Positions 27,806 to 63,072 of a stretch of DNA of 64,000 nucleotides are shown here, piece after piece; within the stretch, counting starts at the first letter, position 1, and each line of letters begins with the position of its first letter. The stretch spans positions 221,692 through 285,691 of the forward strand of contig DAOUJP010000025.1 of NCBI GenBank assembly GCA_034422515.1, read 5' to 3'. Source of the stretch: Chloroflexota bacterium (GTDB taxonomy: Bacteria > Chloroflexota > UBA11872 > UBA12225 > JAJDUF01). Position numbers and translations under genes: made by a program. The notes below the pieces were generated by a model, which made no database searches, was not told where the DNA came from, and saw nothing but the letters and a program-made list of their open reading frames with translations.

Positions 27806-29329
27806 TCAAGCCGCCTCTTCCCCCGCCATCGTGCGGTCAAACAGCTCGACGACCTCCTCGGACGGCTTAACCGTTAGGAGCGTGACCGCGACGGCCACCA
27901 GTATCGCCAGCAGGAAGCCAGGCGTGGCCGGCTGAATGTCCCATAGCCCGCCGGGACCGCCGGAGAGGTATCCCCAGATGGAGGAAACGACCGTGCCGGT
28001 AAGAATGGACGCTAACGCGCCCCAAAAGTTGAACCGGCGCCAATAGAGCGCCAGCAACGTGACCGGCCCAAACGCCGCGCCCATGCCGCCCCAGGCGTAA
28101 GCAACCAAGGTGGATACCGATTCCGGGTTGAATATCGAAAGCAGTGCAGCGATGACACCGACGACCACGAGCAACAGGCGGCCCACCCACACGCGGATAA
28201 ACGCGCCCAGCACGAACACGTATCTCTTCGCATAGATCAGCCGCTTGATGAACGGCAGGTCGTCGGTAGCGACCGCGGAAGCCAGCAGGAGCTGCGAGTC
28301 CGCCGTGCTCATCACCGCCGCAATCACCGCCGTCAACAGCAGGCCGGTAATCGCGGGGATGAAGAACGTTTCCGAAGCCACGAGGAAGACTCGCTCCGGG
28401 TCCGCCGTGACTTCTGCCAGCATATTCGCTTGCGACAGGGCGGGGAGCGCCACCAACCCCAGGAGTAGCCCGAACGAGAACATCAAGAGAATCCAGGCGG
28501 TACCGAGGTCGCGGCTCGGTGCAATCTGCTCCTCGCTCTCCACCGCCATGAACCGCTGCAAGACCCGCTGCGAGCCGAAGTACCCCGCTCCCCAGCCGGC
28601 TGCGGACAACAGGAAGAAGAAGGTGATCGGCTCACCGTCGGCATCGGTCAGCGGATTCCAGAAACCGGCTGGCACGTCGCCGGTACCCTGGAAGGGGTTG
28701 CCGGCCATGGCAATCAACGTCACAGGCAGGATGATGAAGCCGCCCAGCATGATGAGCGCTTGAAATACGTCCGTCCGCGAGACGGCGAGAAACCCGCCAA
28801 TGAACGTATAGGACGCCACCGCGATCAGCGTCACGATGATGCCGGTGTTGTAGCCCAGCCCGAACACCGTCTCCAAGAGCTTGGCGCCAGCGATCAGACC
28901 GGAGCTAATGTAGAAAATCACGAAGAACACGGTGATGAAGCCCGAGAGCGTTCGCAACACCCCCGTCCGATCTCGGAAGCGCCGCTCGAAGAACTCCGGC
29001 AAGGTCAGCGAGTCTTCCGCGGCGATGGTAAAGCGGCGCAGCCGCTTGGCCAGGACCTTCCACGTGAGCCAGCTGCCGAGCACAAGGCCCACCAACGTCC
29101 ACAGCTCGATCAGGCCGTGCTGGAACGCCAAGGCCGGGAACACCAACATGGTCCAGCCACTCAACGCCGACGAACCGGCACTCAACGCCGAGGTGATTCG
29201 ACCCACCCGCCGGCCGGCCAGGACATAGTCCGACATCTCCTGCATCCCGCGGGCGCGGGCTACCGCTATGCCGATCAGCACCAGAAAATAGATGACAAAG
29301 ACGGTCAGAATCCAAGGACTGAATTCCAT
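27806..29329 (-). CDS. sodium:solute symporter (SSS family, PutP-like)
   Basis: 13-TM topology and an N-terminus MEFSPWILTVFVIYFLVLIGIA...YVLAGRRVG typical of PutP. Confidence 0.9.
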   Translation of the reverse strand: MEFSPWILTVFVIYFLVLIGIAVARARGMQEMSDYVLAGRRVGRITSALSAGSSALSGWTMLVFPALAFQHGLIELWTLVGLVLGSWLTWKVLAKRLRRFTIAAEDSLTLPEFFERRFRDRTGVLRTLSGFITVFFVIFYISSGLIAGAKLLETVFGLGYNTGIIVTLIAVASYTFIGGFLAVSRTDVFQALIMLGGFIILPVTLIAMAGNPFQGTGDVPAGFWNPLTDADGEPITFFFLLSAAGWGAGYFGSQRVLQRFMAVESEEQIAPSRDLGTAWILLMFSFGLLLGLVALPALSQANMLAEVTADPERVFLVASETFFIPAITGLLLTAVIAAVMSTADSQLLLASAVATDDLPFIKRLIYAKRYVFVLGAFIRVWVGRLLLVVVGVIAALLSIFNPESVSTLVAYAWGGMGAAFGPVTLLALYWRRFNFWGALASILTGTVVSSIWGYLSGGPGGLWDIQPATPGFLLAILVAVAVTLLTVKPSEEVVELFDRTMAGEEAA

Positions 29330-29601: not shown

Positions 29602-31125
29602 TTAGACTTGGTCGCTCGCTGCCATTGACCGGTCAAATAACTCCACGACCTCCTCGGACGGCTTGGCTGTCAAAAGAGTGACCGCGATAGCCACCGGGAA
29701 CGCGAGCAGGAAACCGGGCGTGGCCGGCTGAATGTCCATGATCCCACCGGGTCCTCCCGAATAGTATCCCCAGATAGTGGAGACGACCGTGCCGGTGATG
29801 ATGGACGCCAGTGCGCCCCAGAAATTGAACCGGCGCCAATACAGCGCCAGAATTGTCACCGGGCCAAACGCTGCGCCCATGCCACCCCAAGCGTAGGCCA
29901 CCAAGTTGAGAACCGATTCCGGGTGGAGTATCGAAAGGAGGGCGGCGATGATGCCTACGATCACGAGCAGCAGGCGGCCCAGCCAAACGCGGACAAAGGC
30001 TCCCAGCACATAGACGTACCGCTTCGCGTAGGCGAGCCTCCTGATCAACGGCAGGTCGTCAGTAGCGACCGCGGAAGCCAAGAGCAATTGCGAATCCGCT
30101 GTGCTCATCACGGCTGCAATCACCGCCGTGAGCAAGACGCCGGCCACTATGGGATGAAAGAATAGCTCCGATACCACCAGATAGACCCGCTCCGGATCCT
30201 CCATGACCTCCGCCAGCGCACCCGCTTTCGCCAGAGCGGCGAACGCCATCACCCCTAGCAGCAGTCCGAAGATGTACGTTAAGAAACTCCATGCCGTACC
30301 CAGGTCACGACTGGCCGGTATCTTCGCTTCGCTCTCCACCGCCATGAACCGCTGCAAGATCCGCTGAGAGCCGAACGCGCCCAACCCCCACCCGGCGACC
30401 GAGAGCAGGAAGAAAACACCGATCGGCTCCCCGGCGGCATCGGTCAGCGGATTCCAGAAACCGGCAGAGACCGCTCCGGTCGTCTGGAAGGGATTGTCCG
30501 TGATGAAGATCAACGTGATCACCATGATGATGAAGCTGCCCGCCATCAGGATGGCCTGAAATACGTCGGTCCTGGAGACTGCCAAGAAGCCGCCGATCAG
30601 GGTGTACGAGGCCACGGCGAAAAACGTCAGCAGGATACCCACCGTCTCGTCCAGCCCGAATATCGTATTGAGGAGCTTGGAGCCGGCGATCATACCGGAG
30701 CTGACGTAGAAAATGACAAAGAAGACGGTGACAAATGCGGTAATAGTCCGCAGCACTCCCGTCCGATCATTGAAGCGTCGTTCGAAGAACTCCGGCAACG
30801 TGAGCGAGTCTTCGGCGGCGATGGTGAAGCGGCGCAACCGCTTGGCTACGATTTGCCAGTTCAACCACAGACCAAACACAATGCAAACGATCAGCCACAC
30901 TTGGATGAGGCCGCCTTGGAAGGCCAGGGCAGGCAGTACCAGCATCGTCCAGCCGCTCGACGTTGATGCGCCGGTGCTCAATGCCGACGTGATGATGCCG
31001 ATCCGCCGGCCGCCCAGGACGTAGTCCGACATCTCCTGCATCCCGCGGGCACGGGCTACCGCTATGCCGATCAGCGCCACGAAGTAGACCAGGAAGACGG
31101 TGACAATCCAGGGACTGAACTCCAT
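29602..31125 (-). CDS. sodium:solute symporter (SSS family, PutP-like), tandem paralog
   Basis: ~75% identical to the neighbouring gene, with the same length of 507 aa. Confidence 0.9.
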   Translation of the reverse strand: MEFSPWIVTVFLVYFVALIGIAVARARGMQEMSDYVLGGRRIGIITSALSTGASTSSGWTMLVLPALAFQGGLIQVWLIVCIVFGLWLNWQIVAKRLRRFTIAAEDSLTLPEFFERRFNDRTGVLRTITAFVTVFFVIFYVSSGMIAGSKLLNTIFGLDETVGILLTFFAVASYTLIGGFLAVSRTDVFQAILMAGSFIIMVITLIFITDNPFQTTGAVSAGFWNPLTDAAGEPIGVFFLLSVAGWGLGAFGSQRILQRFMAVESEAKIPASRDLGTAWSFLTYIFGLLLGVMAFAALAKAGALAEVMEDPERVYLVVSELFFHPIVAGVLLTAVIAAVMSTADSQLLLASAVATDDLPLIRRLAYAKRYVYVLGAFVRVWLGRLLLVIVGIIAALLSILHPESVLNLVAYAWGGMGAAFGPVTILALYWRRFNFWGALASIITGTVVSTIWGYYSGGPGGIMDIQPATPGFLLAFPVAIAVTLLTAKPSEEVVELFDRSMAASDQV

Positions 31126-57005: not shown

Positions 57006-57143
57006 AGTAGGAGCTTAGGACTTGGAGTAGGAGCGTAGCATACGTCCTGCACGCACCACATACGCACCCTCTTTAACAGTCGAATCGGTATGCTAACGCC
57101 ACAGTCACGGCCACGCAGCGCCAGCGGGCGGGGGACACCACGG

Positions 57144-57857
57144 ATGGGTGGCGAAGCACCAGCGCAAATCCTGGTAGCACACCTACGGCGTCAGGGTATC
57201 CGCGACGAGGCTGTGCTGCAGGCGCTGATCCGCGTGCCGCGGGAGTTGTTCATCGCCCAAGAGCTGCGCCATCTGGCCTACGCAGACGAAGCGTTGCCGC
57301 TGGCGGAAGGGCAGACGATCTCGCAGCCAATTGTCGTTGCGACGATGACGGAGGCACTCAGAGTCACGCCGGGGCAGCGCCTGCTCGAAATCGGCACCGG
57401 CAGCGGCTATCAGGCCGCGGTCCTGGCCGAGATGGGCGCCGAGGTCGTGACCGTCGAGCGACTGCCTCGCCTGGCCGATCAGGCGCGGGTGCTGCTGCGC
57501 CATCTCGGCTATCACAACGTCACCGCCCATACCGGCGATGGCACGCTGGGGTGGCCCGAGGCCGCGCCCTATGATCGGATCATCGTCACAGCAGCCGCAC
57601 CTGCGGTCCCACCGGCGCTGTTGGACCAGCTCCGCGAGGCGGGGCGGCTCGTCGCACCGGTCGGCCGGCGCCGCGGTCAGCGGCTACTCGTCGTGCGAAA
57701 GGACGCTGCCGGTCCGGTCGAGGCGGCGGCGCTCGGCCCGGTGCGTTTCGTGCCGCTCATCGGCGCGGCCGGCTGGTCCGAGGCACCGGCCCCGCAGCGC
57801 CGCCGGTCTGGGCCGGATAATGCTGCTGATGCTAAGGACTCCGCCGATTCCAAATGA
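57144..57857 (+). CDS. pcm: protein-L-isoaspartate O-methyltransferase
   Basis: GQTISQP, EIGTGSGYQAAVLA and RIIVTAAAP motifs. Confidence 0.85.
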   Translation: MGGEAPAQILVAHLRRQGIRDEAVLQALIRVPRELFIAQELRHLAYADEALPLAEGQTISQPIVVATMTEALRVTPGQRLLEIGTGSGYQAAVLAEMGAEVVTVERLPRLADQARVLLRHLGYHNVTAHTGDGTLGWPEAAPYDRIIVTAAAPAVPPALLDQLREAGRLVAPVGRRRGQRLLVVRKDAAGPVEAAALGPVRFVPLIGAAGWSEAPAPQRRRSGPDNAADAKDSADSK

Positions 57858-57875: not shown

Positions 57876-58676
57876 CTAGTGGCGGAGCGCCTGCAGTAGC
57901 TCTTCGGCCTGCTCGGCGCTGATCTTCCCTTCCTGCAACATGGTCAAGACGGCCCGCCGCTCCTCGGCAACGGTCGCAGCCGCATCAGCGGCGCCCTCCA
58001 CAGCGTCCGCCGGCCCGGAGTCGGCTCTGGCCTCTCCCGCAGCACGCGGGCGGCGCTCCCCGGCCCGTTGCTTTGCTTGCTGCATCCGCTCCTCGGTGCG
58101 CTGGGCAAACCGCTCGGCACGCTCCTCGGCGGCACGAGCAAACCGCTCGGCGCCCTCCTCTGCCCGGCGGATGAAGGCCTCCACGTTTATGTTGGCACTC
58201 CCGCGCCGCCCGCGGCGGCGTGGACGGTCATCGGATTGGTCGCCGAAGTCGCCGCGCCCCCACGCGCCAAACGTGCGTCCGAACTGCTCGCCGAGATCGC
58301 GGCCTAGCCGCCCGAAGTCGGCGCCGATGCGCCGGCCGACATCCGAGAACTCACGCGCAAACACGGTGGCCGTCTCCACCACCTGATCGTCGCCGGCCGA
58401 CCGAACAGTGAACTCACCGTCCATGTTGTGGACGCTGACTTTGCGCGGGCCGGCGACCACGGCCAGTTGTGCGGCCCGCGGCACGTCAATGCGGAGCGGT
58501 CCCGACGCCTCCACGATAAAGCGGTGGCCCTCCTCGCGGACGTGGTATTCGGTTTGCGGGTCTTGGGCCTCCACGCGCAGCGTCGGGGCATCGTGGCCTA
58601 GCACCTCGATGTCGCCGCGGCACGCAAAGACGTTCAACTCCAGCGTGCCCTCTGCGGGTACCTCTTGCTCGAACAT
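57876..58676 (-). CDS. DUF4097-like beta-strand protein with C-terminal SHOCT-like helix
   Basis: Repetitive beta-strand N-half (L.V....G.I.V). C-terminal LTMLQEGKISAEQAEELLQAL short helical motif. Confidence 0.6.
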   Translation of the reverse strand: MFEQEVPAEGTLELNVFACRGDIEVLGHDAPTLRVEAQDPQTEYHVREEGHRFIVEASGPLRIDVPRAAQLAVVAGPRKVSVHNMDGEFTVRSAGDDQVVETATVFAREFSDVGRRIGADFGRLGRDLGEQFGRTFGAWGRGDFGDQSDDRPRRRGRRGSANINVEAFIRRAEEGAERFARAAEERAERFAQRTEERMQQAKQRAGERRPRAAGEARADSGPADAVEGAADAAATVAEERRAVLTMLQEGKISAEQAEELLQALRH

Positions 58677-58738: not shown

Positions 58739-59137
58739 TCACTGCTCGCGGAGCTTTTGCACCGCCTCGTCTACGCCGATTGCGCCGGCCGCCAAGTCAT
58801 CGAGCACGGCACGTCGCGCCGCCGGCGAGACCGGGCGTCCGGCAGCCTGTTCGGCCGCGATATGCTCATCCACCGCAGCCAGCCCCAGGCTGTTGATAAC
58901 GTCGTCGAGCCGGGAGCGTACCGTCGGATAGGACACGCCCAATTCCTGCTCCATGTCGCGGATGACGCCCCGACACCGCACGAACAGCTCGACAAAGCGC
59001 AGCTGCTCCGGTGCGAGGCGCAGGAGGCGCGGCAGCGTGAACCGTCCTTCGAGCGCGGTACCGCAGTGCGTACACTCCTCACGGACCACAACCAGTTCAC
59101 CGGTGCAGACCGGACACTGTCCGAGAACCTCGCTCAT
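58739..59137 (-). CDS. DUF2089 family protein (zinc ribbon + HTH)
   Basis: AAGGAG RBS then ATG 59137. CPVCTGEL...CTHCG zinc ribbon followed by an HTH-like FVRCRGVIRDMEQELGVSYPTVRSRL. Usual genomic partner of DUF4097. Confidence 0.7.
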   Translation of the reverse strand: MSEVLGQCPVCTGELVVVREECTHCGTALEGRFTLPRLLRLAPEQLRFVELFVRCRGVIRDMEQELGVSYPTVRSRLDDVINSLGLAAVDEHIAAEQAAGRPVSPAARRAVLDDLAAGAIGVDEAVQKLREQ

Positions 59138-59159
59138 CGGCGGCTCCTTCAATATCCTC

Positions 59160-59260
59160 CACTCAACTGTGAGAAATCTTGATGATCTTATCAAGATCAT
59201 AGACTCTCGACGATCATTTGTCAAGCGAGCGGTATGATCGGACGTGCGTGGACCGTCAGG
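59160..59260. promoter_or_regulatory. AT-rich divergent control region with near-palindrome TGATCTTATCAAGATCA and candidate promoters (TTGATG-N17-TAGACT)
   Basis: Strong local AT bias in a 68% GC genome. An imperfect 17-bp palindrome sits between divergent DUF2089 (-) and dop (+). Confidence 0.35.
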
Positions 59261-59417
59261 CGCGGTGTCGGCGACGAGTACCATGGCCCGGCGAAGACTT
59301 GACCGGGCCGGTGCCGGCCGGTGCTAGAATGGATGCAGAGCCAACAGCGGGTCGGTTGCTCCGGCCGGAGGGGACGCTCCGGGGCAGCAACGACCGGGAA
59401 AGGGACACCACTCCTAG

Positions 59418-60959
59418 ATGAACCGTCCTGTCGGGATCGAGACCGAGTACGGGATCAACTGCGAGGGCTTTGCCGGGCCGGTGGACTTTGCCTACGAGGC
59501 CTCGGCCATCGTCCGCGGCGCGCCGCTCGACGGAGTGCTGCGCGGCTGGGACTACCGGCACGAGGATCCGCGGCTGGACCTGCGTGGGATGCGGGTCGAG
59601 CAGCTCGCCCACGATCCTCACGACCTGCACAGCACGACCGAGCTGAGTAAGCGGCTCAACCGCGATGAGCTATTGGCGAATACCGTCCTGACCAACGGGG
59701 CGCGGTTCTACAACGACCACAATCACCCCGAATACTGCACGGACGCCTGCGCCACGCTCGCCGATCTCGTCGCTCAGGATCGGGCCGGCGAGCACGTGCT
59801 CTACCAAGCCGAGCAGGCCCGCAACGAGGTCCTGCGCCGCGAGCGCGGCGGGGGCGTCCGCGTGCGGCTGGTCAAGAACAACACCGACTATCACGGCCGG
59901 TCGTTTGGCACGCACGAGAACTACCTTGTTGCTCGCGCCTGGCCCTTCCCGACGCTGGTGCGGCTGATGGTGCCCTTCCTGGTGACCCGCCAGGTGTACG
60001 CCGGCGCCGGCAAAGTCGGTATCGAAGCGCGCGACGGCCAGGCCGCGATGCCGGCCGCAGGCTTTCAACTGAGTCAGCGGGCCGATTTCTTCGAGCAAAT
60101 CGTCGGCATCAACACAACGGCCCAGCGTCCCATCCTGAACACCCGCGACGAGCCGCACGCGGATCGCAAGAAATATCGCCGGCTCCACGTCATCATCGGC
60201 GATGCCAACCGCTCCGAGTACGCCACCGCGCTCAAAGTCGGCACTACCGCTCTGGCGCTGGACTTGGGGGAGCTAGGCTGGGTACCGTCGGTCGAACTGG
60301 TCGAGCCGGTCCAGGCGCTACAGACCATCGCCCACGACCTCACCCTCAGCGCACCGCTGCCCACCCGCGCCGCCACGCCGACCACGGCACTGGCCGTGCA
60401 GCGTGAGTTTCACACGGCGGCCCGCCGCGAGTTCGCCGGCCGCGACCCGGAAACGGACTGGGTGCTCCGCGAGTGGGCCACCGTGCTGGACCTGCTCGCA
60501 TCCAATCCGCAGCAGCTACGCGACCGGCTCGATTGGGTAGCGAAATGGGTGCTGTTCGAGGGTATCCGCCAAGCCCAAGGCCAAGACTGGAGCAGCCCGG
60601 CCTTGCGCCGCCTCGACCTCGCCTACCATCTGGTCAACCCGGAGTGCAGTCTCTTTGCTACCCTGAGCAGGCGGGGCGCGATGCGCCGGTACGTTGACGA
60701 GGAGGCCATCGCGCGCGCGCGCACCGAGCCACCCGCGGGCACACGGGCCGCCATTCGCGCGCTTTGTCTGCGGAAGTTCGGCGACCGGATTCGCCGGCTC
60801 GAATGGGACTCCGTAACGTTCGGTGTCAATGGACGCGAGGTGGTCCTACACTTGGATGAAGTGTGGGGAGCCGGAACGACCCGCATCGAGGAGTTGACGC
60901 GCGGAGCAGACAGTCTCGACGCCCTGTTGACCACCCTGAAGTCGGGAGGAACCCAATGA
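59418..60959 (+). CDS. dop: Pup deamidase/depupylase Dop
   Basis: Pup-ligase/deamidase family (GIETEYGI...NGARFYNDHNHPEY...KNNTD..G.S.G.HENY...RRLHVIIGDAN). Carries the long Dop-specific insertion between the first strand and the NGAR motif, about 80 residues against about 45 in the downstream paralog. Confidence 0.75.
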   Translation: MNRPVGIETEYGINCEGFAGPVDFAYEASAIVRGAPLDGVLRGWDYRHEDPRLDLRGMRVEQLAHDPHDLHSTTELSKRLNRDELLANTVLTNGARFYNDHNHPEYCTDACATLADLVAQDRAGEHVLYQAEQARNEVLRRERGGGVRVRLVKNNTDYHGRSFGTHENYLVARAWPFPTLVRLMVPFLVTRQVYAGAGKVGIEARDGQAAMPAAGFQLSQRADFFEQIVGINTTAQRPILNTRDEPHADRKKYRRLHVIIGDANRSEYATALKVGTTALALDLGELGWVPSVELVEPVQALQTIAHDLTLSAPLPTRAATPTTALAVQREFHTAARREFAGRDPETDWVLREWATVLDLLASNPQQLRDRLDWVAKWVLFEGIRQAQGQDWSSPALRRLDLAYHLVNPECSLFATLSRRGAMRRYVDEEAIARARTEPPAGTRAAIRALCLRKFGDRIRRLEWDSVTFGVNGREVVLHLDEVWGAGTTRIEELTRGADSLDALLTTLKSGGTQ

Positions 60960-61183
60960 CACCTGAACAGACCACAGCCATTTTCGACCGCATCCTGCCG
61001 CTACCGGCGGCGGAGATTGACGCGCCCGTCAAGCCGGTGGAGACGCCAACGGAAACGCCGACCCGCATTGACAATCCCGATGGCGACGGGGGCAGCGAGG
61101 ACGGCGAGACGGACCTGGATGAGGAGATCAAGCGGATCGTGCGCGAGATTCCCGATCCGACCCCGCAGCCGGGCGGCGAATAA
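60956..61183 (+). CDS. pup: prokaryotic ubiquitin-like protein Pup (atypical, ends -PQPGGE)
   Basis: 75-aa acidic, low-complexity ORF. ATGA-coupled to dop, lies between dop and pafA, and terminates in GGE immediately before the stop. Confidence 0.65.
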   Translation: MTPEQTTAIFDRILPLPAAEIDAPVKPVETPTETPTRIDNPDGDGGSEDGETDLDEEIKRIVREIPDPTPQPGGE

Positions 61184-61288
61184 CACGCTCGGCGCGGTCC
61201 TACGGCGCCAAATAGTTTGACATAAGTGCGGCGAACACCAGGTCAAGCCGAGACGCAGTGGCAAGAGAGCCAGCGCAAGGCAAAGTAG

Positions 61289-62815
61289 ATGGAAAACGCG
61301 CTTTTCGGCACGGAGATCGAGTATGCGTGCGCCGGGCGCTGGACCCCGGCCGAAGCCGCCATCCGCACCAAGGACGGCGTGTTCGGCAATCGCCTGTACG
61401 GCGTGATCGAGCCGGCGCCGCGGGAATGGGGCGAAATCCCGGGGAACGGCGGCTTTCTCTACAACGGCGGCCGCCTGTACCTGGACTCCGGGCACCTCGA
61501 ATACGCCTCGCCGGAATGCCGGACCCTCGATGACCTAGTCGCTGCCGAGGTGGCCGGTGACCGTATCCTCAGCGGCGCAGTAACCCTACTGGGACAGCAA
61601 GGCTCTGTCTTTTTCATCAAGAACAATACGGACCATTTCGGCCACACGTTCGGCTATCACGAGAACTACTGCCTCCGGGTCAGCCCGCGAAGCCGGGACA
61701 TGGTCGAGGGCTTGCTGCCTTTCCTGGTCACCCGGCAGATTTTCGCCGGCGCCGGTATGGTCGTGCCCACCCGCCGCACCAGCCGCGGCCGCGGCGGTGA
61801 TGAGGACGCGAATACGCCCTACCATCTCTCCCAACGCGCCGCGTTTGTCTCCGTAGACGTGAGCCATCGCGTGCGGTTCGGCGGACGACCAATTCTCAAT
61901 CTCCGCGATGAGCCGCTGGCCGGCGGCCTCTACCGCCGACTGCACATCATCATCGGCGATGCCAACCGCTCGGAGTACACGACGGCCCTCAAGATCGGGA
62001 CGACCGCCCTCGTCGCGCAATTGCTCGAATTGGGCTGGGACCCCGAGTTGGAGTTGGAAAATCCGGTACAGGCGCTCAAGGACATCTCGCGCAACACGCG
62101 CGGGGGGTGGACGGCCCGCTTCATGGACCGCGGCACGATGCCGGCCGTGGACGTGCAGCGCCTCTACCTGCACGAGGCTACCCGCCAATTCCTCGGCCGC
62201 GACCCGGATACCGATTGGGTGCTCCGCAACTGGGCACAGGTGATTAATGGCCTGGAGCTTGATCCTCTCCGGCTCGACGGCCATCTCGATTGGGTCACCA
62301 AGTGGCACCAGCTCAACGCCTTTGCGGAGCAGTCGCCGCAGGGTTGGGAAGACCCGCAGCTTATCAAGGTTGATCTCGCCTACCATCACATCGAGCCAAA
62401 GACCAGCCTCTACGAGTCGCTCCGCAAGCGCGACCTGGTGAGCACGCGGGTAGACGAGCCGCGCATCGAACGAGCGGTCACGGAGCCGCCGTCCGACACG
62501 CGGGCCGTGGGCCGGAGCCGGGTCATCCGGGCGCTCGCCGACGCCCGCGCCGACGCCACCATCCCCTGGGACCTGCTCTCTCGCCGGCTCGGGGAGCGCG
62601 CGCTGTGGGGTGACGAGCCGTTCTTCATCTACAGCTACGTGGAAGACTGGCAGGACGTTCGGGACACCGGCACGTGGCACCTCATCCCGTATCTGGTGGA
62701 TTGGGGCGCCGTCACCGTGCATAACCACGTGCTGGAGCTACCCGACCCCTTCGACACGCACCTGGAGCGCGCGGAGCAGTTCGCCCGGACCATCCCCGGG
62801 CTGCTGCGTAAGTAG
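61289..62815 (+). CDS. pafA: Pup--protein ligase PafA
   Basis: Same family as dop (GTEIEYA...NGGRLYLDSGHLEY...KNNTDHFGHTFGYHENY...RRLHIIIGDAN) but lacks the Dop loop. The C-terminal WDLL..RLGERAL region aligns with PafA. Confidence 0.75.
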   Translation: MENALFGTEIEYACAGRWTPAEAAIRTKDGVFGNRLYGVIEPAPREWGEIPGNGGFLYNGGRLYLDSGHLEYASPECRTLDDLVAAEVAGDRILSGAVTLLGQQGSVFFIKNNTDHFGHTFGYHENYCLRVSPRSRDMVEGLLPFLVTRQIFAGAGMVVPTRRTSRGRGGDEDANTPYHLSQRAAFVSVDVSHRVRFGGRPILNLRDEPLAGGLYRRLHIIIGDANRSEYTTALKIGTTALVAQLLELGWDPELELENPVQALKDISRNTRGGWTARFMDRGTMPAVDVQRLYLHEATRQFLGRDPDTDWVLRNWAQVINGLELDPLRLDGHLDWVTKWHQLNAFAEQSPQGWEDPQLIKVDLAYHHIEPKTSLYESLRKRDLVSTRVDEPRIERAVTEPPSDTRAVGRSRVIRALADARADATIPWDLLSRRLGERALWGDEPFFIYSYVEDWQDVRDTGTWHLIPYLVDWGAVTVHNHVLELPDPFDTHLERAEQFARTIPGLLRK

Positions 62816-62925
62816 TTGCACATACCCACCCCCAACCCCTCCCTGATGAAAGTTACCAACTTAATCGGGTAGTGAGGCATCCCCTTCCCCCAGCCCTATC
62901 CCCGCTCCGCAGGGGGCCGGGAGCG

Positions 62926-63072
62926 GGTTCCCTCCCCTGGGGCTTGCTCCGGGGGATGGTGAGGGGGGCCAGACCACTACCTAATCAAGTTCGCAACCTT
63001 CATAAGGGAGGAGGCTCCAGGTTGTCGCGCGGACTCCCCTTCCCTGGAGGGAAGGGGCCGGGGGTTAGGTCC
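62926..63072 (+). repeat. module D copy 3 (62926-63008) followed by module C (63026-63072)
   Basis: gggttccctcccctggggcttgctccgggggatggtgaggggggccagaccactacctaatcaagttcgcaaccttcat ... gcgcggactccccttccctggagggaaggggccgggggttaggtcc. Confidence 0.8.

Follow-up and report, generated by a model that had tools for sequence, protein, structure and literature searches.

The 64-kb stretch of the Chloroflexota contig DAOUJP010000025.1 analysed here (the window, with positions counted from its first letter) encodes a three-gene cassette, ligA-pupL-ligB, that probably forms a self-contained write/erase module for Pup-type protein conjugation in a subset of Chloroflexota. Two paralogs, orthologous to the pupylation enzymes Dop and PafA, enclose a short gene, pupL, for a candidate protein modifier. 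The gene content is conserved, the catalytic residues of both enzymes are intact, the modifier ends in either Glu or Gln, and genes for a proteasome or for the unfoldase Mpa are locally lacking. A literature search returned no description of such a cassette and none linking pupylation to Chloroflexota, and a published survey describes pupylation as conserved in Actinobacteria and Nitrospirae and lists scattered homologs from a small number of further phyla, Chloroflexota not among them (PMC7947786).

Cassette layout and conservation

The pupL start codon overlapped the ligA stop codon (aATGAc; ATGA at 60956-60959) and was preceded by GGAGG at a distance of 6-7 nt, and the encoded protein ended in ...DLDEEIKRIVREIPDPTPQPGGE (Table 1). 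A sequence-only reading of the window had described two Pup_ligase paralogs flanking an ATGA-coupled 75-aa open reading frame (ORF) with a GGE end, and the Pfam matches and coordinates bore this out. The same three genes, including the 75-aa pupL, were called in Logan contig SRR13587046, assembled independently from the same organism. Scanning a single genome for each species yielded 65 related loci, each inspected over ±10 kb (~20 kb per genome), all of which were labelled Chloroflexota or Chloroflexi and five of which were named Thermoflexus. Carriers include the complete chromosomes OZ242293.1, OZ241866.1, OZ243944.1, OZ244803.1 and OZ244814.1, and the lineages concerned are abundant in the freshwater hypolimnion (TK10-type), as sponge symbionts and in soils. 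The sequence-only reading had proposed asking whether the small ORF keeps its position in relatives that carry both ligases; it did so in 65/65 loci, flanked in every one by orthologs of ligA (47-96% identity) and ligB (51-99%). A word-indexed protein search additionally identified 24 PupL relatives, and a metagenome pattern scan returned at least two short loci. Flanking genes differed between lineages while the cassette stayed, and all-versus-all clustering of ORFs within ±10 kb of 66 loci found no universal neighbour beyond it; recurrent neighbours were metabolic (MR_MLE, PFK, OCD/mu-crystallin and 2-hydroxyacid dehydrogenase).

A small ORF kept between two conserved genes is best judged by how its protein sequence evolves. 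The PupL tail, RIIRE[IV]PDPTPQPGG[E/Q], was nearly invariant although the ligases diverged to ~50% identity, and the N-terminal half was variable in the family alignment. Within the last 17 residues 13 were invariant, and each of these was encoded by 2-5 synonymous codons, which indicates that selection acts on the PupL protein; the alignment clearly points to strong purifying selection on the tail. All 66 sequences ended in GG[E/Q] followed by a stop codon, with Glu in 44 and Gln in 22, distributed by clade, and no other terminal residue. Alternation between GGE and GGQ is a hallmark of Pup, of which GGQ forms need deamidation by Dop before ligation. The small ORF is a real, conserved gene.

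PupL had no match in Pfam or NCBIfam at E<=10, and neither did other members of the family. In controls, Pup of Mycobacterium tuberculosis (Mtb) matched PF05639 at 3e-22, and UBact proteins from loci L067 and L069 (L numbers are our handles for loci) matched PF20513 at 1e-20 and 2e-22, so that PupL falls outside both the Pup and the UBact profile. A HMMER search with the PupL family profile against 1.84 billion representative proteins recovered only 21 representatives, all with the PupL tail, and never reached Pup or UBact. The description of an atypical Pup without the canonical FVRxYVQKGG[Q/E] helix motif was upheld by the missing PF05639 match and by the family's own invariant tail. We regard PupL as a distinct sequence family in which the second helix of Pup (FVRxYVQK) is replaced by the proline-rich PDPTPQP. 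Its architecture resembles that of Pup, with a disordered N terminus, an acidic amphipathic helix and a GG[E/Q] end, and it shares the features of that functional class in being small, predicted to be disordered, terminated by GGE or GGQ and located directly downstream of a dop-type gene. AlphaFold2 predicted a disordered chain (predicted template modeling score, pTM, 0.17) with one short helix at 54-62 (LDEEIKRIV), the same spot at which a nonsignificant hhalign alignment (8%) pairs PupL ETDLDEEIKRIVREI with residues 35-50 of Pup, ETDDLLDEIDDVLEEN, which we take to be its first PafA-binding helix.

Dop-type and PafA-type enzymes

Several features support ligA as an ortholog of Dop. Its best NCBIfam model was TIGR03688 (Dop) at 441.7 bits, against 355.7 for PafA, and against sequences from the PDB it scored 376 bits with Dop and 229 with PafA. 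The spacing between the GxExE and NGxRxYxD motifs, which is widened by the Dop loop, was 87 in the window and 86-123 over all ligA proteins. The insert carried a conserved WDY..E.P..D.RG (in the window form WDY..EDP..D.RG) common to the Dop-position enzymes of UBact operons, the alpha-loop was of the Dop type (DFFEQIVGINTTA; DFFExxxGINTT), and the catalytic Asp, D100, was followed by D-H-x-H (ND-HNHPEY).

Profile and structure comparisons discriminated less well for ligB. NCBIfam was ambiguous (Dop 291.1 bits, PafA TIGR03686 289.1), and scores against PDB sequences were nearly neutral (Dop 224 bits, PafA 207). An AlphaFold2 model of ligB (predicted local distance difference test 89, pTM 0.90, with the alpha-loop in its least confident part) matched both Dop and PafA structures in Foldseek at template modeling scores of 0.75-0.77, without discrimination, and had remote matches to YbdK, GCL and glutamine synthetase. 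Individual positions were more informative: the motif spacing was 52 in the window and 52-54 over all ligB proteins, with no Dop loop, and ligB had the equivalents of the PafA-signature residues Phe47, Leu56 and Gly59 (GGFL[FY]NG, L-D-S-G-H), the discriminating positions being those of Hecht et al. (PMC7947786, Table 1). Its alpha-loop was family-specific and strictly conserved, FVSVDVSHRVRFGG, with the pattern F[VT][ST][VI]DVS[HRQ]RVRFGG and one residue longer. These features support ligB as a divergent PafA ortholog with putative ligase activity.

A neighbour-joining tree (401 well-aligned columns, 200 bootstraps) separated actinobacterial Dop, the UBact Dop-position enzymes and ligA from actinobacterial PafA, the UBact PafA-position enzymes and ligB at 96%, and joined ligB with the UBact-type PafA at 97%. 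The sequence-only reading had named the upstream paralog Dop from its loop and the downstream one PafA from the lack of it. Both assignments held: the loop was present in every ligA, together with the Dop-type alpha-loop, and absent in every ligB, and the two clades were separated at the bootstrap value given above. In a UBact operon the motif spacing was likewise 87 in the Dop-position gene and 57 in the PafA-position gene. Both cassette enzymes retained 41 near-invariant columns, among them those of the catalytic Asp (D100 in ligA, D66 in ligB), the nucleotide-binding motifs, KNNxD, HEN and RDEP; their NCBI name is only "proteasome accessory factor PafA2 family protein". Each of three PafA lineages possessed its own alpha-loop and its own tag tail, and we infer that the tag tail contacts the alpha-loop.

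Proteasome and Mpa genes

Two proteasome beta-subunit probes, validated as PF00227 members, gave no phmmer match at E<=1 among all ORFs of the 64-kb window and 66 loci. Likewise, tblastn with Mpa, PrcB and PrcA from three UBact operons returned nothing below E=0.01 in the window and 68 loci of ±10 kb, pupL-ligB spacers included. Across that set the locus departs from the Pup-proteasome architecture in having no linked mpa/arc with prcB/prcA; no prcBA or mpa lay within 10 kb of the cassette in the 65 related loci, and the pupL-ligB spacers held no remnants of proteasome genes. The claim that the window lacks prcAB and mpa stood up to both searches over 64 kb. Chloroflexi have been reported to contain no proteasome (Fuchs et al. 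2017; PMC5666114), and pupylation without a 20S proteasome is known from Corynebacterium, in which ferritin is tagged to release iron (reviewed in PMC8223512).

Three lineage groups have a Clp-type double-AAA ATPase at a distance of 4-8 kb from the cassette (L042:2477-4603, L045:207-2351, L038:1288-3444, L033:16953-19418 and other group-4 loci). In two groups it was a short form of ~710 aa without Clp_N, with an Arg/Gly-rich N terminus and an IGF (ClpP-binding-type) loop, upstream of the cassette; the third group had a canonical 821-aa ClpC encoded on the other strand, 8 kb downstream. A conserved partnership was considered and set aside, as a canonical ClpC in one case and a different short paralog in the others, with differing position and strand, probably represent residual synteny; the ATPase is a candidate unfoldase partner.

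Relation to known modifier systems

Like actinobacterial pupylation loci, the cassette has a small disordered modifier with a GG[E/Q] end directly after dop, and Dop/PafA paralogs with conserved catalytic residues of which only the Dop paralog carries the Dop loop. It differs in the modifier, whose tail is PDPTPQPGG[E/Q] rather than FVRxYVQKGG[E/Q] and which the Pup hidden Markov model (HMM) does not match. Corynebacterium keeps ARC, whereas the cassette locus is without an Mpa/ARC gene and belongs to Chloroflexota, not Actinobacteria. Absence of prcBA from the locus is shared with Corynebacterium glutamicum (PMC8223512).

A second comparison was provided by the UBact-proteasome operons of Gram-negative phyla, retrieved complete in L067-L070 (Latescibacterota and other metagenome-assembled genome contigs), which encode an mpa-like AAA protein, a Dop-position ligase, UBact, prcB, prcA and a PafA-position ligase. 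Outside its own clade, ligB was closest to the PafA-position ligases found there (44-46% identity, 97% bootstrap), which share with it an N-terminal PGNGGFL[FY]N and a D-x-G-H catalytic neighbourhood. Gene order is also the same (dop-modifier-...-pafA), the cassette corresponding to mpa-dop-UBact-prcB-prcA-pafA minus mpa and prcBA, and PupL, like UBact, contains a KR[IM]x[RK]xxDP stretch. In contrast, UBact ends in ...VDPNQARRYRQRTGE (RRYRQR[TS]G[EQ], with a single Gly), PupL misses PF20513, and the UBact-type PafA has a third type of alpha-loop, HIVTEIYQWIQFS, where ligB has its own. The mpa-like ATPase and prcB/prcA are part of the UBact operons, whereas no cassette locus has these nearby. 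We infer that the cassette works like pupylation, with Dop and PafA orthologs, a tag outside both Pup and UBact, and the degradation half absent from the locus.

Proposed mechanism and alternatives

In the mechanism we propose, PupL would serve as a disordered tag of ~55-100 aa with the tail ...[DE]L.E.[IV][KR]RIIRE[IV]PDPTPQPGG[E/Q]. In lineages encoding GGQ, ligA would deamidate the terminal Gln to Glu; ligB would then, at the expense of ATP, phosphorylate the C-terminal Glu on its gamma-carboxylate and attach PupL to the epsilon-amino groups of target lysines, and ligA would also remove the tag. Recognition of PupL would take place via its acidic helix and proline-rich tail by co-diverged enzyme surfaces. 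Since the second Pup helix is replaced and ligB has its own alpha-loop, this recognition probably differs in detail from that between Pup and PafA. As no locus has a linked Mpa-type ATPase or 20S gene, the PupL tag would not feed an operon-encoded proteasome; its likeliest role is that of a reversible regulatory mark or of a delivery signal for an unlinked unfoldase or protease. A more far-reaching version, to which we give somewhat less than even weight, is that PupL represents a third independent Pup-type modifier family, operating with no proteasome or Mpa-type unfoldase, bound through its proline-rich tail in a manner unlike the two-helix Pup-PafA interaction, and earmarking its targets for regulation or for handling by a machine other than the proteasome. 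The cassette might reflect ancestral pupylation before proteasome coupling, or a complete secondary uncoupling.

A number of observations weigh against a conjugation module of this kind. Both enzymes score below the equivalog cut-offs, ligA with 441.7 bits against 492.3 for TIGR03688 and ligB with 289.1 bits against 551.3 for TIGR03686. Two features of actinobacterial PafA are missing from ligB, the Val58 insertion that follows the catalytic Asp and the canonical alpha-loop HxWEGxSSAxxRS with its functionally important Glu177 position, so the ligase activity of ligB is a presumption; the UBact-type PafA likewise lacks both features. PupL shows no significant similarity to Pup or UBact and no HMM match, the hhalign comparison of its family with Mtb Pup reaching a probability of 8%, which is not significant. 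Actinobacterial references in the tree were few, three coming from PDB alignments, and one of them, the Mtb PafA sequence, was unvalidated against any model or structure. The conjugation and deamidation reactions, and what becomes of tagged proteins, are proposals, and because ~20 kb per genome was covered, mpa and prcBA could be encoded elsewhere in the genome.

This last point is what allows for an ordinary Pup/UBact-proteasome system in which mpa and prcBA have been relocated and PupL-tagged proteins still reach a 20S proteasome. Such relocation would suit both the place of ligB as sister to the PafA of UBact-proteasome operons and the variable, disordered N-terminal part of PupL, which could be a threading handle. 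We nevertheless consider it unlikely: 0/65 loci from diverse lineages keep mpa or prcBA within the ±10 kb inspected, the spacers hold no remnants, and the Mpa-binding region of Pup is helical, with which the proline-rich middle of PupL fits poorly. Moreover, the genes concerned are tightly linked in known systems (the L067-L070 operons; PMC8223512), and Chloroflexi are the phylum reported as proteasome-less (PMC5666114).

A different chemistry would follow if PupL were a carrier or precursor peptide, to whose C-terminal Glu ligB adds a small-molecule amine and which ligA hydrolyses or matures, in the manner of LysW or of ribosomally synthesized and post-translationally modified peptides. LysW, which is small and acidic, is ligated in an ATP-dependent reaction at the carboxylate of its C-terminal Glu. 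The Pup ligases are members of the carboxylate-amine ligase superfamily, as the remote Foldseek matches of the ligB model reflect, and a dedicated small-molecule chemistry could also account for the extremely invariant tail and for the alpha-loop peculiar to the ligB family. The enzymes that ligate LysW are of the ATP-grasp type, and LysW lies in biosynthetic operons, whereas the cassette enzymes have the Pup_ligase/GCS2 fold. We judge a carrier role improbable because no biosynthetic or transport genes are conserved beside the cassette, where neighbours vary by lineage; the orthology of the enzymes to Dop and PafA, which are known to act on Pup and on protein lysines, and the E/Q alternation, which is specific to the deamidation logic of Pup, also speak against it. 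That the small ORF arose by chance and the ligase paralogs act on another substrate, as its lack of a database family and a GC-rich genome full of spurious ORFs might suggest, is effectively refuted by its constant position in 65 loci, its invariant tail despite synonymous turnover, its unfailing GG[E/Q]-stop and its recovery by independent gene callers.

Upstream control region

No other 100 nt of the window are as low in GC as positions 59147-59246 (43% GC against a mean of 66%), in agreement with the sequence-only reading, which had singled out the intergenic region upstream of ligA as the most AT-rich. The palindrome it described there, TGATCTTATCAAGATCA, is present at 59183-59199, but this 17-mer recurs in just one relative; the conserved element is another one, an inverted repeat TCTTGAT-N6-ATCAAGA at 59177-59196, whose arms, unlike its variable spacer, are maintained when the region is aligned with eight close relatives. 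It overlaps the -10 element and expected start site of the divergent DUF2089 gene, whose promoter was the strongest sigma-70-like site of this region (Table 1). A longer, 181-aa DUF2089 ORF reaching 59284 was replaced by the 132-aa call, which most likely starts at 59137 behind its own GAAGGAG.

On the plus strand, a promoter-like site TTGATG-N17-TAGACT had been suggested. It is a less favoured candidate: the promoter scan did not list it, and its -35 falls on one of the arms of the inverted repeat. A better candidate for the ligA promoter is the block TTGACC-N20-TAGAAT preceded by TG (59299-59330), gaagacTTGACC...ggtgcTAGAATgg, which is kept in 8/8 close relatives, although its conservation is weak evidence because all of these relatives are close. 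The scan did not list this site either, owing to its 20-nt spacer. L003 and L006 carry, where they align with about 59311-59325 of the window, an 11-bp tandem duplication (ccggtgctaga) at TGcTAGAAT, so that part of the -10-like motif is present twice.

DUF2089 had further been proposed as a regulator of the cassette, which our comparison did not favour. Together with the SHOCT-like protein, protein-L-isoaspartate O-methyltransferase, a solute-binding protein and Fe-ADH, it stands beside the cassette only in L002-L009 (88-96% ligA identity). Because of this limited synteny, and because the strongest promoter faces DUF2089 and the inverted repeat overlaps its minus-strand -10, DUF2089 is more likely an autoregulated neighbour than a cassette regulator.

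Table 1. Cassette genes and elements of the upstream region in the window
Feature	Position	Strand	Evidence
ligA, Dop-type deamidase/depupylase homolog with Dop loop, 513 aa	59418..60959	+	Pfam PF03136 Pup_ligase E 1.6e-150, full-length
pupL, disordered Pup-like modifier candidate, 75 aa, ending PQPGGE	60956..61183	+	ORF and conservation
ligB, PafA-type ligase homolog without Dop loop, 508 aa	61289..62815	+	Pfam PF03136 Pup_ligase E 2.3e-113, full-length
DUF2089 gene, 132 aa	58739-59137	divergent from ligA	Own GAAGGAG Shine-Dalgarno; called in Logan SRR13587046
DUF2089 promoter, TTGACA 59224-59219, 17 nt, TATGAT 59201-59196, with inverted repeat 59177-59196 over the -10/start region; probably independent of the cassette	59177..59224	-	Promoter scan, 11/12 matches, strongest sigma-70-like site
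TGcTAGAAT extended -10-like motif, candidate ligA promoter	59322..59330	+	~88 nt upstream of ligA ATG

Neighbouring genes and spacers

The 266-aa neighbour of DUF2089 (57876-58676, minus strand) has a C-terminal SHOCT-like_DUF2089-C domain and matched only this model, so the DUF4097 label it had been given was not confirmed; with DUF2089 it looks like a self-contained DUF2089/SHOCT module. A weak Zn_ribbon_LysW match belongs to the DUF2089 protein, not to PupL. Next to these genes, 57090-57857 (plus strand) encodes the protein-L-isoaspartate O-methyltransferase, a protein-repair enzyme found near the cassette only in the closest relatives. PADLOC defence models had no match among five proteins (ligA, PupL, ligB, DUF2089 and the SHOCT-like neighbour), and Rfam and tRNA scans of the window found no RNA genes.

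Downstream of ligB, the Fe-ADH gene and repeats noted by the sequence-only reading were recovered. Between ligB and the Fe-ADH gene, which is convergent with it, 265 nt hold a 37-nt inverted repeat (62838-62874 / 62975-63011, 81% complementary, arms 100 nt apart) beside G/C-rich direct repeats. The left arm of the inverted repeat is single-copy in the window, and the element could be an insertion resembling a miniature inverted-repeat transposable element or a structured terminator region. Elsewhere in the window, two adjacent minus-strand ORFs of equal length, 507 aa, at 27806-29329 and 29602-31125 are possibly tandem paralogs.

Among the related loci, the pupL-ligB spacers ranged from 10 to 735 nt and contained short repeats. 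The 734-nt spacer of L008 (L008:10229-10962) holds two small ORFs resembling a HicA/HicB toxin-antitoxin pair, a likeness that rests on the motifs YLDRHGSSHDIYRHP and MIRYPALLDGDEGAYGVVFPDIPG, recognised by eye only; this HicAB-like insertion indicates that the cassette tolerates insertions between tag and ligase. In L021, L022, L024, L027 and L028 (about L024:10136-10770) the spacers contained repeats of ~35-45 nt that are common to different genomes, in both orientations and at 88-94% identity, which suggests a small dispersed repeat family in that Chloroflexota lineage.

Implications for Pup-type tagging

As it stands, the cassette exposes an annotation gap, in that the tag gene has no Pfam or NCBIfam model and both enzymes fall under the Dop and PafA equivalog cut-offs. 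Its short tag with a compact, invariant recognition motif may be useful for engineered tagging. For the biology of the family, a conserved dop-tag-pafA cassette offers a natural experiment in tag recognition, in which the acidic helix and the GG[E/Q] end are kept, the second helix has become PDPTPQP and the alpha-loop co-varies, and it lets one ask what Pup-type tagging does without a linked Mpa or 20S proteasome. If the more far-reaching version is true, PupL would be a third Pup-type modifier family, in a phylum reported to be proteasome-less.

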